A stretch of 64,000 nt of DNA from a virus. Taxonomy: Duplodnaviria; Caudoviricetes. The DNA is taken from the IMG/VR virus record IMGVR_UViG_3300011008_000032, positions 20,728 to 84,727 of that record. One strand, written 5' to 3'. The notes beneath the pieces are model-generated. The model saw nothing but the letters and a program-made list of their open reading frames with translations, was not told the DNA's origin and ran no database searches. Positions 3,699 through 8,297 of the stretch are shown here, piece by piece (the stretch's first letter is position 1; each line of letters opens with the position of its first letter). A program made the position numbers and the translations under genes.

Positions 3699-3960
3699 CA
3701 GTAAGGATTAAGTTTGCGCATACTACCAGCATATCTGACATTTCATTAAAGGTACAAATACCCCTTTGATACTGTCTGTTGATAGCATTAGATACAGCCG
3801 TAATGTCATCGTTGTAATCTCTCATTAGTGTTAATACATTCAAAAGTGCCATAGTGTTAAACCACCTTTCATAATATAGATAGACTTATAGTGATAGTGC
3901 GTTCCTACCCACCTATTGCGTGGAAACAATGTCCACGTACTCAATGAATAAGCCCACAAG

Positions 3961-3990
3961 AAAAGGCACCACTACTTGAGTGATGCCCTT
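3961..3990 (-). terminator. intrinsic terminator after the 270-aa gene
   Basis: Minus-strand stem GGCAUCACU/AGUGGUGCC followed by UUUUCUU. Confidence 0.7.
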
Positions 3991-4016
3991 GTTCTAGGAT
4001 TATTCGGGGATTTAAT

Positions 4017-4829
4017 TTATTCGGCTATTACACCTACTACAAGTGTGCAAACCACTTTGTTAAATCTATCCCAGTTATAAGTTGTGTTACCTTCCTTGTC
4101 GGTCTTAGCGGATATGAGCGTCTTGGCTACTGTACCACTGTATGAGATACTACCGTCCTCATCCTTGCTAAATTTGTTAGTGTAACCCTGAACATATGCA
4201 TCCTGTATCATATAGATCCGGTTCTTATCGAACTTAATGCGTACTTCGTCGGTGTACTCGTTGGCTGTGGGAAGTGACAGTGATACCTTGAGTATCTTCT
4301 GAATTGAACCCTGTGCTATCTTATAGTTATCCTTGACCTTTTTGGTTAAGGACATAGCACCGTCATCGGTTATGGCGTTCGTGTAGTCATGGCATACCTC
4401 AAGTGCCTTATACAGCTCCTCATTGCCGTTGAGTGACTGGAGTGCTATCTTCTCAAGTTTGGAGTTACCGGCTGTGGCAATAAGGCGGAGTAATCGGATA
4501 ACATTTTCCTTGACGTTATCGCCTACTACCATACCCTTGACAACCTTATCATAGGACTTCTTGCACTCGGATACTTTAGCCTCATACCCCTTGATGTCCT
4601 CTTTGAGTGCCTTAATCTTATCTTCAAAACCCTTAATCTCATTATCTGTGTACTTGTAAAAGCCGTTCTTCATAGGCTTCTTGTTACTCTCGATCTTCTT
4701 CTCAAGACCGGAAATCTGTGCGTGTGCTAATTCAATGAGCATAATGAACTCACTGTATGATACAGCCGTTGCGAACTCTACTCTCTGTACGTCGTTGATG
4801 GTTGCTGCAAAAATGTTTGTTTTAAGCAT
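4017..4829 (-). CDS. hypothetical protein (270 aa, coiled-coil N-terminal half), first ORF of the leftward early transcript
   Basis: Long ORF with RBS GAAAGGTAGGA and codon usage typical of high expression; no family recognised. Confidence 0.8.
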   Translation of the reverse strand: MLKTNIFAATINDVQRVEFATAVSYSEFIMLIELAHAQISGLEKKIESNKKPMKNGFYKYTDNEIKGFEDKIKALKEDIKGYEAKVSECKKSYDKVVKGMVVGDNVKENVIRLLRLIATAGNSKLEKIALQSLNGNEELYKALEVCHDYTNAITDDGAMSLTKKVKDNYKIAQGSIQKILKVSLSLPTANEYTDEVRIKFDKNRIYMIQDAYVQGYTNKFSKDEDGSISYSGTVAKTLISAKTDKEGNTTYNWDRFNKVVCTLVVGVIAE

Positions 4830-4866
4830 GGTTAATTCCTACCTTTCATTATAATAGATTATTAGT

Positions 4867-4948
4867 GTCCTCACTCTGTATTGATACGGACTTGTGACCG
4901 GCACATAAGACTTATTTTTTGTGGTGCTTATGTGGTTACATTAAGAAC
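4867..4948 (-). ncRNA. twister self-cleaving ribozyme, type P1
   Basis: Minus-strand RNA GUUCU-UAA-UGUA-AC-CACAUAAG...CUUAUGUG-C-CGG-UCACAAGU-CCG-UAUCAA-UACA-GAGUG-AGGAC. P1 GUUCU/AGGAC, P2 UGUA/UACA, P3 8 bp, P4 CGG/CCG, pseudoknots T1 CAC/GUG and T2 AC/GU (covaried from the usual GC/GC), conserved U^AA cleavage site. Confidence 0.88.
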
Positions 4949-4949
4949 G

Positions 4950-5445
4950 TATAGTTTTTGGCACATTCTCACATGGTATATACTCACTTTACTGATCTGA
5001 TAAAATCATTACGCTTTACCATGCCTACCGACCCTTCCTACCTACGCCCATAGGTGTATTAACTCACTAAACGGCTACAACTTGTGGCGGAGTTTTTGTG
5101 TAGGTACACAAGGCATAATCCGCACCGTTGTGAGTATAGGCACAACGTATAGAAGTAATACAAGTCAGAACATCTGACAGCCTGAACGTCAGGCGGAAAA
5201 CCGCTATACGTTGCGAGTGCCTCTATATAGATCGACGTTACTCCGCATTTCAGCGACCTATCGGTGTGCCTACTTCCTTGAAGTCTTACCGCACTTACTA
5301 ATTGCACCGTACCGCCTATGAACTACAAACAATGCGGATTAATTGCAAGTCAAATCTTGGCTCTTTCAGTCACTCGGTAAACCTTATCCCTATTGACCGA
5401 CCGTCGATATTAAGTTTTCAAAGTACCCCGTCCCCCTTGGGACAA
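4950..5445 (-). ncRNA. candidate large structured non-coding RNA or leader upstream of the twister
   Basis: No credible ORF; less AT-rich than flanks; many helices: 5143-5152/5204-5213 (10 bp) enclosing three hairpins, 5117-5124/5333-5340, 4972-4978/5017-5023, 5096-5111. Confidence 0.45.
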
Positions 5446-5478
5446 TAACATTATCTCACAATCCTAGGTATTGTGCTA
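5413..5478 (-). promoter_or_regulatory. putative extended -10 promoter with operator-like palindrome and boxA-like element
   Basis: Minus strand TG-A-GATAAT (5458-5450); near-palindrome CACAATCCTAGGTATTGTG (5457-5475); GTACTTTGAAAACT (5426-5413) resembles the Firmicutes rRNA boxA. Confidence 0.4.
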
Positions 5479-5680
5479 AAAAACTATAATTTTTTTTCGC
5501 ATTTGCTGGATTTATGCGGGTTAAGGGGGTATTTTTAACGCTAAAAAATCCCCGAAAACGTGATATATGCGTACCAGTTTCACCCACACATCAACCCCAA
5601 AAACTACCGATAAAACTACTCATCATCCCATCTACCATCCCAATCGCCTTCCGCATCGTAAAACCACCCATAAAACCAGT

Positions 5681-5727
5681 TTATGCATAAATCATGCATA
5701 TTATGCAAATTTCGTGTATATTATGCA
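5681..5727. repeat. three phased TTATGCA heptamers
   Basis: TTATGCA at 5681, 5701 and 5721 (exact 20-bp period), plus CATGCA at 5693. Confidence 0.75.
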
Positions 5728-5760
5728 TTCAATCCGCAGAATCCCCGTAATACCGCGCAA

Positions 5761-5799
5761 AATTAAACCCTTGAATTATATCCAAAATAATGGTATGAT
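5761..5799 (+). promoter_or_regulatory. sigmaA-type promoter with conserved upstream AATTAAACCC
   Basis: TTGAAT-17 bp-TATGAT; the same AATTAAACCCTTGA motif precedes the promoter at 6675. Confidence 0.65.
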
Positions 5800-5827
5800 A
5801 TGGTTGAAGAATTGGAGTGGATAATAA

Positions 5828-5861
5828 TAAGTATTATTTGTTTATTAAGTATTATTTGTTT
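5828..5861. repeat. 16-bp direct repeat TAAGTATTATTTGTTT x2
   Basis: Copies at 5828-5843 and 5846-5861. Confidence 0.8.
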
Positions 5862-5920
5862 TAAGATCTGCCAAAAAGAAAGTGGATTTTCCATTTTGAC
5901 TTGACAAAAAGAAAGTAGAG

Positions 5921-6670
5921 GTGGTTGTTATAGGTGCAAAAAACATAGATATTATATGTCCAAATAAGCTGGTCACGTTTTTTGACTCAACTCCACTTTT
6001 GGTCTATTGTCTCTCTCAAAACGCTTATAAAATAGGCAGAAATTGTGTCAGATGGGAAACTATCGCATATTTAATGAAGTGCCCTGTACCGGTGCAGCAA
6101 AAAAAGAAAAAACAAATATTGGACGCATTAGATAATTTATGTGACCTGGGATTTATAAAGAAAGAAAATTATTGGGGATATATAATTGATGCCAATTCAT
6201 TCTATAATCAAACGGAAGGTTTTGAAAGATGTTCTTATGAAGCATTAATGACTCTCAGAGATAATGCCCCTCTCTTTCAACATTATATGTTAATCAAAAA
6301 AGGATTGATTAACGGTAGGTGTACTTATGATATTAATTATTTCACAAAGATGGAGAACGTGAGTGAGCGCACTATTGCCAGACGTAACCAAGAGTTGGTC
6401 AATTTGAAATTAATAGATATATATAGAACGGTCAAAGATGATAAATACGACCGCAATGTTTATGTGCTTCATAATGATAAATATGTTGCCGGCCAGAATT
6501 TTAGCAATATTGACCGCAGCATATCCCAGCGGTACAATTCTTTTGTAAAGAATCCGGATAAGTTTACCCCTATTATGCGCAAGACGCTGCGTAAGCAGGT
6601 GGAAGAATATAACGCCCGCAATCCGGATCGAGCAAAAGATCTGGTTGCCTTTGATACCGAGATAAATTAA
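5921..6670 (+). CDS. putative winged-HTH DNA-binding protein (regulator or replication-initiator-like)
   Basis: 249-aa ORF with two HTH-like segments (TIAYLMKC...ILDALDNLCDLGFIKK; FTKMENVSERTIARRNQELVNLKLI); start codon uncertain. Confidence 0.5.
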   Translation: MVVIGAKNIDIICPNKLVTFFDSTPLLVYCLSQNAYKIGRNCVRWETIAYLMKCPVPVQQKKKKQILDALDNLCDLGFIKKENYWGYIIDANSFYNQTEGFERCSYEALMTLRDNAPLFQHYMLIKKGLINGRCTYDINYFTKMENVSERTIARRNQELVNLKLIDIYRTVKDDKYDRNVYVLHNDKYVAGQNFSNIDRSISQRYNSFVKNPDKFTPIMRKTLRKQVEEYNARNPDRAKDLVAFDTEIN

Positions 6671-6736: not shown

Positions 6737-6898
6737 ATGTACGAAGAATTGAAACTACGCTACTCTTCTTTCGATTTTGCTTCCGCAATAGACGAGATAC
6801 TCGCATGGGAAGCGGAACTTACAGAAGAGAATCAGATAAAGAAAAATGTATTGCGCGGAGTTCTGGATATTATTCTTGACAACTGCGTATTTGAGTGA
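6737..6898 (+). CDS. small hypothetical protein (53 aa)
   Basis: Manual translation MYEELKLRYSS...ILDNCVFE; RBS AAAGGAG. Confidence 0.65.
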   Translation: MYEELKLRYSSFDFASAIDEILAWEAELTEENQIKKNVLRGVLDIILDNCVFE

Positions 6899-6908
6899 AG
6901 GAGCCCCT

Positions 6909-8297
6909 ATGTATCCTAAATTTAACTTATATTGTTATTACCCGCAATTTAATCATATGTATGCCCCGAAATATTTCGACTGGGTTACTGATGGGAGCGG
7001 GGTAATTAATTTTTGGGTAGACGATTATATAACAAAACAACCTACTGTCTGTAACGGGCGGGCTGATATGGCTATGCTTATAGAGCCACGTACTATACAG
7101 CCAACTATTTATGAATATGTAGAAAAGCACAGCAAAGACTTTTCTCTTATATTTACTCATGATGAGAGAATACTTAAGTTACCGAATGCGCGGCACATAT
7201 TCTTTATGAACTGGTATAAGACTTATGATGTACCTAAGACCAAGGCTATCTCAATGGTATGTTCTGATAAGGTAATGTGTAACGAACACAAGCAGAGGCA
7301 GAAGCTTGCGGATATGCTGGGAGATCGGGTAGATCACTACGGGATGTATAAGGGTGGTTATAAGTGTGATTATTATGAGTGTCGTGCCGAGTATATGTTT
7401 GAAGTTGTAGTGGATAATAACTGGAGTGGGTATTGGCTTTCAGAGAAGCTCGCTAATCCATTGGCTAGTAAGACTATCCCTATTTATTTAGGAGGCCAAT
7501 ACTTTCCGGATGATATAGATACCCGCGGAATACTCACTGTTGATTCTATAGATGAGATTCCGGATTTAGTTACTCATATACTCGGAGCACCTGAATACAT
7601 ATATAATAATCTTCTCTATTATGTCGAGAAAAATTATAACACGGTTATTAATAAATATCACGTATTTGAAGATTGGTTTTATCAGGAATATAAAGATGAA
7701 CTGAATAAGTATGCGAGTCTTAGTGTAATTAGTAATAACTGTATGGGAGGCTGTTTACTTCATGATCTTAAGATACCATACCAGTCTCCTACTGTAAGTC
7801 TTCAAATACTTCCGGAGGAGTATCCAAAGTTCTGTGAAAATATAAAGTATTATATGCAGCAGGAAGTGAAGGAATGCAAGGCCGAGGATCTTTCGGAGAA
7901 ACATAAACAATATCTTATGAATATGTTTGATAAGATACCCGAGATGCCTTATGGATTGTGCGGTGACATTTTGATTTGTTTTCAGCACTATCCTACTTTT
8001 GAAGACGGAAAGGTTATGTGGGATAAGCGGGCTAAGAGATTTGACCCTAATCATGTGGCATTTATATTTTATTCGAGAGATCAAAAATATAATAAATATG
8101 TGCAAGAATTTATTGATTGTAATTTTGATAAGGCCGTAGTATTTACCGAGAATTATAATATGGATTTACCAGTTGAGCATCATGAAATTATACCTCCTAC
8201 CGGTGGGCATTTTTTAGATCCACGTGGAGATGGTCATAGGCATTATGAATATTGGTTTAATCCGGCAGATTGGGTACGTCGAATTAGAAATATATGA
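6909..8297 (+). CDS. GT10 (alpha-1,3-fucosyltransferase-like) glycosyltransferase fused to a DUF1919-like domain
   Basis: YMFEVVVDNNWSGYWLSEKLANPLASKTIPIYLG matches the GT10 motif; VISNNCMGG...PYQSPTVSL matches DUF1919; start ATG 6909 after AAGGAG. Confidence 0.7.
   Translation: MYPKFNLYCYYPQFNHMYAPKYFDWVTDGSGVINFWVDDYITKQPTVCNGRADMAMLIEPRTIQPTIYEYVEKHSKDFSLIFTHDERILKLPNARHIFFMNWYKTYDVPKTKAISMVCSDKVMCNEHKQRQKLADMLGDRVDHYGMYKGGYKCDYYECRAEYMFEVVVDNNWSGYWLSEKLANPLASKTIPIYLGGQYFPDDIDTRGILTVDSIDEIPDLVTHILGAPEYIYNNLLYYVEKNYNTVINKYHVFEDWFYQEYKDELNKYASLSVISNNCMGGCLLHDLKIPYQSPTVSLQILPEEYPKFCENIKYYMQQEVKECKAEDLSEKHKQYLMNMFDKIPEMPYGLCGDILICFQHYPTFEDGKVMWDKRAKRFDPNHVAFIFYSRDQKYNKYVQEFIDCNFDKAVVFTENYNMDLPVEHHEIIPPTGGHFLDPRGDGHRHYEYWFNPADWVRRIRNI

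Follow-up and report, generated by a model that had tools for sequence, protein, structure and literature searches.

The divergent intergenic region of this virus genome harbours, on strong covariation in every stem and both pseudoknots, what we take to be a genuine type-P1 twister ribozyme, located on the minus strand of the window (i.e. the whole stretch of 64,000 nucleotides analysed here). The best explanation of the locus, and one that we consider very probable, is that the twister is functional and cleaves a leader RNA from the mRNA of the downstream genes, the precursor being transcribed from a promoter near 5450.

At the head of a leftward accessory arm of about 25 kb, the twister sits in a divergent intergenic region of 1.1 kb. 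All genes between the start of the record and 4829 are on the minus strand and comprise many small open reading frames (ORFs), a peptidase, an HD hydrolase and integrases, while all genes of window positions 5921-64000 are on the plus strand and include a DnaD-like replication protein and large ORFs up to the window end. Given its host-type promoter and its 25 kb of accessory gene content, the leftward arm is plausibly "early". The replication-side arm also encodes a 483-aa protein (6846-8297, plus strand) with a fucosyltransferase-like GT10 C-terminal domain and a DUF1919; its neighbour, a 948-aa protein, belongs to PHROG 8308 (function unknown) and had no match among PDB sequences.

Architecture of the element

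All the parts of a twister that a sequence-only reading had claimed on the minus strand (P1, the UAA, P2, P3, L4, T1 and T2) are found in place when the sequence is read at the corresponding positions (Table 1). Between P2 and P1, the 3' strand of L1 reads G4876 A4875 G4874 U4873 G4872, and the junction that precedes the 3' strand of P2 reads AUCAA. Stems P1 to P4 were recovered by an unconstrained minimum-free-energy fold. Together, the sequence, the Rfam match described below and this fold show the topology of the P1 type: the 5' and 3' ends lie in P1, P3 is closed by a loop and there is no P5. The distance from the predicted cut to start codon 4829, which had been put at about 110 nt, is 113 nt of 5' UTR when counted from A4942, and 37 nt separate the end of P1 from the start of the first gene.

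Table 1. Positions of the twister, its parts and the surrounding features in the window, in the order of transcription
Feature	Position	Strand	Basis or remark
Sigma-70-type promoter-like site: TTAGCA, 18 nt, TG-a-GATAAT (extended -10)	5450..5479	-	Consensus match only
Conserved non-coding leader, probably structured, about 500 nt, ends 12 nt before P1	4949..5443	-	Alignment, RNAalifold
Complete type-P1 twister ribozyme, both P1 strands included	4867..4948	-	Rfam, model R1, relatives
P1 5' strand GUUCU, partner AGGAC at 4867-4871	4944..4948	-	5 bp including one G.U
Predicted scissile dinucleotide U4943^A4942, then A4941	4942..4943	-	UAA = RF03160 model positions 5-7
P2 5' strand UGUA, partner UACA at 4877-4880	4937..4940	-	Covariation
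T2 5' half A4936 C4935, partner U4890 G4891 in L4	4935..4936	-	Covariation
P3 hairpin: 8 bp (4934-4927 with 4909-4902), loop of 17 nt	4902..4934	-	Covariation
P4/L4: C4900-G4887, G4899-C4888, G4898-C4889, U4897.A4892	4886..4901	-	Covariation and structural rule of PMC5408937
L4 loop UCACAAGU	4897-4890	-	Read from sequence
T1 5' half CAC, partner GUG (G4872-G4874); A4893 opposite A4875	4894..4896	-	Covariation
Guanine equivalent to the active-site G (env22 G48), directly 5' of A4875	4876..4876	-	Mapping from PMC5408937
Shine-Dalgarno region AAAGGUAGGA, 7 nt from the ATG	4837..4846	-	Read from sequence
Gene of the 270-aa orphan protein, first downstream of the twister	4017..4829	-	ORF list

The element departs from the twister-P1 consensus mainly at two pairs of sites, a C-to-A change in L4 with a G-to-U change in L1 and a G-to-A change in L2 with a C-to-U change in L4. 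Both departures are compensated, because the changed positions are exactly the partners of T1 and T2: T1 becomes CAC/GUG in place of CCC/GGG, and T2 becomes AC/GU in place of GC/GC. Two other differences concern the junction before the 3' strand of P2, which is UCAA where the consensus has UAAA, and the outermost position of P4, which is a C4901.U4886 mismatch.

Covariance-model searches

A twister-P1 covariance model, the check that the sequence-only reading had named, returned a significant match over its full length. Run in E-value mode, the Rfam family RF03160 (twister-P1) matches positions 4868-4947 over model positions 1-68 of 68 with 46 bits, which corresponds to E = 4e-9 for a stretch of 501 nt and to E = 5.1e-7 for the whole window searched with 4227 families; it is the sole match to a ribozyme family in the 84.7-kb virus record in this mode. 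The score is under the gathering cut-off of 67.2 bits, which is an annotation convention and not a structural feature, and a default Rfam scan of the window at the gathering level is silent for this reason. The missing bits were lost at the compensated T1 and T2 positions, in the long P3 loop and in the junction. Since the nested RF03160 model treats the T1 and T2 positions as unpaired, the Rfam score gives no credit for the compensatory changes. With our own model R1, built from the window family with nested pairs only, the window copy scores 102.6 bits.

Relatives of the locus

The 270-aa protein encoded after the twister has seven homologues in the protein index (76-96% identity). All eight readable metagenomic contigs that carry homologues also carry the twister, about 35-40 nt before the ATG, and a GGAGG- or GAGG-like Shine-Dalgarno sequence is retained. 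Several compensatory changes set relatives apart from the window copy: P1 is GUCUG/CAGAC in L114 and L115; P2 is UACA/UGUA in L113 and UGCU/AGCA in L114-116; P3 of L114-116 has a wholly different sequence, fully paired and with a long insert; and some relatives have C-G in place of the P4 pair G4899-C4888. In L115, the centre pair of T1 is C-G (CCC/GGG) instead of A-U. The outermost P4 position is A-U, G-C or G.U in relatives and C.U in the window copy and its closest relative, L109, and the junction of the window copy and its closest relatives is UCAA or CUAA, not UAAA.

Searches elsewhere for this locus were negative: blastn of positions 3800-6000 against INPHARED phages gave no close relatives, no related locus was found in IMG/VR with the 270-aa and 948-aa proteins or in GTDB genomes with the 270-aa protein alignment, and the 270-aa protein had no usable match in PHROGs, Pfam or the ESM Atlas.

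Covariation and catalytic positions

Model R1 gathered 17 type-P1 twisters. The aligning model contains nested stems only, T1 and T2 having been added by hand after the alignment; the alignment is thus fitted to the nested stems, so that the counts for these lean toward the structure and those for the pseudoknots do not. With this reading of the counts, 96.4% of the cells are paired (25-41% in slid controls), double changes occur in 22 of 26 pairs (19 of the 21 nested ones), and the covariation score is 0.542 against 0.143 after shuffling, a value that none of 500 shuffles reached. Stem by stem, P1 is paired in 90% of cells with double changes in 5/5 pairs, P2 in 100% with 4/4 covarying pairs, P3 in 97.7% with 8/8 covarying pairs and P4 in 94%, the G4899-C4888 pair being C-G in three sequences. 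Both pseudoknots are paired in all 17 sequences. The centre pair of T1 is A-U in 15, C-G in one (L115) and G-C in one (L106); as its outer pair, 16 sequences have C-G and the remaining one U-A. For T2, which the sequence-only reading had described as a covaried AC/GU, the description holds: the changed pair is intact throughout, as A-U (14 sequences) or G-C (three).

The positions linked to catalysis can be compared with published rules. Twisters require stems P1, P2 and P4, P3 being optional, and a double pseudoknot formed by T1 (L4/L1) and T2 (L2/L4); a highly conserved A lies 3' of the scissile bond in J1-2, and L4 contains an invariant G-C pair plus a U.A pair (PMC5408937). In the env22 twister, the A 3' of the scissile bond (A6) is the proposed general acid, and the active-site guanine G48 directly precedes A49, which pairs with A34 (PMC5408937). 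Judged by position in the sequence, A4942 corresponds to env22 A6 and G4876 to env22 G48. In the 17-sequence alignment, UAA is present at the cleavage site of 16 sequences and its A 3' of the scissile bond is invariant, while the guanine at the position of G4876 is found in 17/17. The bases for A4875.A4893, U4897.A4892 and G4898-C4889 are present in the window copy and in 17/17 sequences, as far as sequence can tell. Where the window copy has C in the junction, unrelated twisters have A, U or C, and the next two A's are invariant in 17/17.

The upstream promoter and the leader RNA

A conserved promoter about 500 nt upstream, no conserved ORF in between and a gene 37 nt after P1 agree with the leader position that had been claimed for the element. 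The promoter-like site was recognised by its match to the consensus, and its hexamers and TG are conserved in five other aligned contigs (four distinct sequences). The intervening segment is 71-98% identical among aligned relatives, whose proteins are 76-96% identical. RNAalifold gives it a multi-domain fold with 121 pairs, 25 of them with double changes, and 94.5% pairing as against 33-39% in slid controls, values that come from five sequences only and from a structure derived from the same alignment. The case for a conserved structured RNA is therefore good but not final. No Rfam family matched the leader at E <= 1, and 4949-5443 looks like a new structured phage RNA, the 3' end of which would be defined by the twister.

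Three other candidates in this region were rejected: the 82-aa ORF at 5059-5307 as a gene (a relative with 98% identity has the frame interrupted), a promoter formed by TATAAT at 4853-4848 (not conserved in relatives), and a helix predicted by RNAalifold in which the P1 5' strand would pair with the leader sequence AAGAGC (broken in 2/5 sequences). Upstream of the promoter, about 140 bp (5450-5589) are almost invariant in relatives and contain an A/T tract and a GGGG...CCCC inverted repeat, and TGCATA(A) occurs three times at an exact 20-nt spacing (5727, 5707 and 5687), within 5682-5727 on the minus strand. These repeats and the near-invariant region could be operators or iterons of a divergent control region.

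Proposed mechanism

We propose the following sequence of events. Host RNA polymerase would most likely start at the conserved promoter near 5450 and transcribe, in this order, the structured leader of about 500 nt, the twister, the Shine-Dalgarno sequence and the 270-aa gene that opens the 25-kb arm. Once P2, P3, P4, T1 and T2 have folded, the twister would cut this precursor, the 2'-OH of U4943 attacking its own phosphate. The predicted 5' product is the leader of about 500 nt, including 4943-4948 and thus ending in ...GUUCUU with a 2',3'-cyclic phosphate; the predicted 3' product is an mRNA that begins with a 5'-OH A4942 and has the compact twister body (P2, P3, P4, T1 and T2) as its 5' end. 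The cut would uncouple the conserved structured RNA from the coding transcript, and determine how the mRNA 5' end is built, chemically and structurally. We infer three things for this locus: that the RNA cleaves, that leader and mRNA are transcribed together from the 5450 promoter, and that RNA stability or translation is affected.

The direction of such an effect is harder to foresee. After twister cleavage, the fold of the 3' fragment reportedly buries its 5' end (PMC8782182), and such burial could shield that end. With the glmS ribozyme, in contrast, cellular RNases degrade the mRNA once it has been cleaved (PMC6765202). The two precedents point in different directions and the sign of the expression effect is thus not predictable. 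If the leader carries an RNA-tethered antitermination signal, the cut would also separate that signal from the elongating polymerase. More tentatively, and as a possibility that falls somewhat short of probable, the twister may be the 3'-end maturation device of an undescribed, ornate phage non-coding RNA of about 500 nt, which the leftward promoter would produce first, releasing this RNA and resetting the mRNA 5' end in the same reaction. If this is true, a bacterial or phage twister would gain a defined and testable job.

Alternative explanations

The segment just 5' of P1 raises the question of where transcription starts. The block ACCATGTGAGnATGTGCCAAAAA (window 4955-4979, minus strand) is invariant in 9/9 contigs, a conservation that exceeds that of the ribozyme stems, and it resembles the TGTGAGATAATG of the upstream promoter. 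It could hold a second promoter (TG-t-GAGAAT near 4973-4965), in which case a real twister would sit at the extreme 5' end of its transcript and clip a triphosphorylated 5' tag of about 10-15 nt to leave a 5'-OH mRNA, the 500-nt RNA being either separate or a read-through product. We consider this unlikely: the promoter scan did not call the site, there is no credible -35 and the hexamer is GAGAAT or GAGTAT. Moreover, RNAalifold pairs the block with invariant segments upstream, GCAUGGUA with UACCAUGU (8 bp) and GGCAC with GUGCC (5 bp); these helices are themselves invariant, so that covariation cannot decide their pairing. This modelling favours a role of the block as 3' domain of the leader RNA over one as second promoter. 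A pattern scan of IMG/VR for the block before P1 gave no match, and a metagenome scan gave nine loci, of which three are members of the family (L117, L120 and L122) and six are chance matches.

The remaining alternatives bear on the ribozyme itself. The twister fold may have been kept while cleavage became slow or absent, the element being selected as a structural 5'-UTR element with a protective or regulatory role. Such a loss would fit the UCAA or CUAA that replaces UAAA in the window copy and its closest relatives, the C.U mismatch at the base of P4 in the window copy and L109, and the fact that many predicted ribozymes fail in vitro (PMC8782182). However, all the nucleotides linked to catalysis are kept (the cleavage-site A, G4876, A.A, U.A and G-C), the junction change is of a kind that unrelated twisters tolerate in nature, and both pseudoknots, which build the active site, have been preserved by selection; a twister that hardly cleaves is thus, in our view, quite improbable. 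Finally, a chance resemblance, in which an AT-rich intergenic hairpin happens to score against the twister model, could draw on the score under the Rfam cut-off and on weak RF03160 matches (E <= 1) in 2 of 14 control genomes. It is scarcely credible in the face of a full-length match at E = 5e-7, compensatory changes in six helices across relatives and the failure of all 500 shuffles to reach the observed values, and we regard it as refuted as far as comparative data allow. The reading that best accommodates these observations remains the functional twister that would separate the leader from the mRNA.

Relation to known systems

The window copy is a further example of a known element and not a new kind of element. 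It shares with the type-P1 twister (RF03160, clan CL00120; Roth et al. 2014, reviewed in PMC5408937) the topology, both pseudoknots, the U^A site, the catalytic G and the architecture of L4, and it differs from the RF03160 consensus in T1 (CAC/GUG), T2 (AC/GU), the junction (UCAA) and the score (46 bits versus 67.2). With the type-P5 twisters of phage operons (RF02684), it has the L4 15-mer in identical form and both the T1 and the T2 variant in common, and after these twisters, too, a Shine-Dalgarno sequence and start codon follow at a distance of a few nucleotides up to a few tens. The RF02684 twisters, however, are circularly permuted (open at P5), usually lie between genes and often occur in arrays (11 copies in one IMG/VR contig), whereas the window copy is a single type-P1 element at the head of an arm and follows a long non-coding RNA. 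Large structured RNAs of phages and the RAGATH RNAs, which occur close to hammerhead and twister ribozymes, are also represented in Rfam (for example by RF03153 and RF03104) and similarly place a conserved structured non-coding RNA beside a twister in phage DNA; unlike these, the leader of about 500 nt matches no Rfam family and directly abuts the ribozyme.

The glmS ribozyme of Gram-positive 5' UTRs is a self-cleaving leader RNA that leaves a 5'-OH mRNA (PMC6765202), as predicted for the window copy. It differs in that it needs GlcN6P as a cofactor and in that its cleavage leads to degradation by cellular RNases. We know of no ligand dependence in twisters.

Earlier work has described twisters next to phage genes and immediately ahead of gene starts, with transcript processing as the proposed role, and the role of bacterial and phage twisters is still open (PMC6765202). 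The present locus is worth keeping because of its clean layout, with one promoter, one structured RNA, one ribozyme and the first gene of a long arm. This simplicity would allow a direct comparison of active and inactive ribozyme variants, in release of the 500-nt RNA as well as in expression of the genes downstream. The natural compensatory series, e.g. the CCC/GGG of L115, is also of value.

The same loop variant in other phage twisters

IMG/VR contains 107 stretches with the exact L4 15-mer, a number near chance expectation, and 45 of the 101 distinct contexts are unrelated. The other contexts (about 56 of 101) are twister-shaped, about 48 resembling the permuted P5 type and about 8 the P1 type, and all of them carry GAGUG and AC, the T1 and T2 variants of the window copy. 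The permuted contexts pass the Rfam Twister-P5 cut-off, and in 38 of the 48 a Shine-Dalgarno sequence and start codon follow closely. By contrast with their permuted counterparts, none of the type-P1 twisters with CAC/GUG and AC/GU that were scanned (L017 2171-2240, L049, L064, L090 and L104) attains the RF03160 gathering score. Because these other examples of the loop variant all fall below the cut-off, Rfam RF03160 under-calls the CAC/GUG plus AC/GU pseudoknot subclass, which is common in phage DNA; the window copy thus exposes an annotation gap.

Several loci seen during these scans have features of their own. In L017, the P1 3' strand GGAGGA doubles as the Shine-Dalgarno sequence of the next gene. 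The 67-kb phage contig IMGVR_UViG_3300032046_000022 contains eleven type-P5 twisters at the Rfam level (L016 5153-8645 and L052 402-2093), each a few nucleotides before a Shine-Dalgarno sequence and start codon, and all share the L4 15-mer of the window copy. The IMG/VR locus L106 (2650-5696, minus strand) carries type-P1 twisters at 5696-5632, 3736-3661 and 3348-3284, interleaved with RAGATH-4 (5282-5149) and RAGATH-36 (2778-2650), and one of its twisters has UGC/GCA as T1, a doubly compensated variant.
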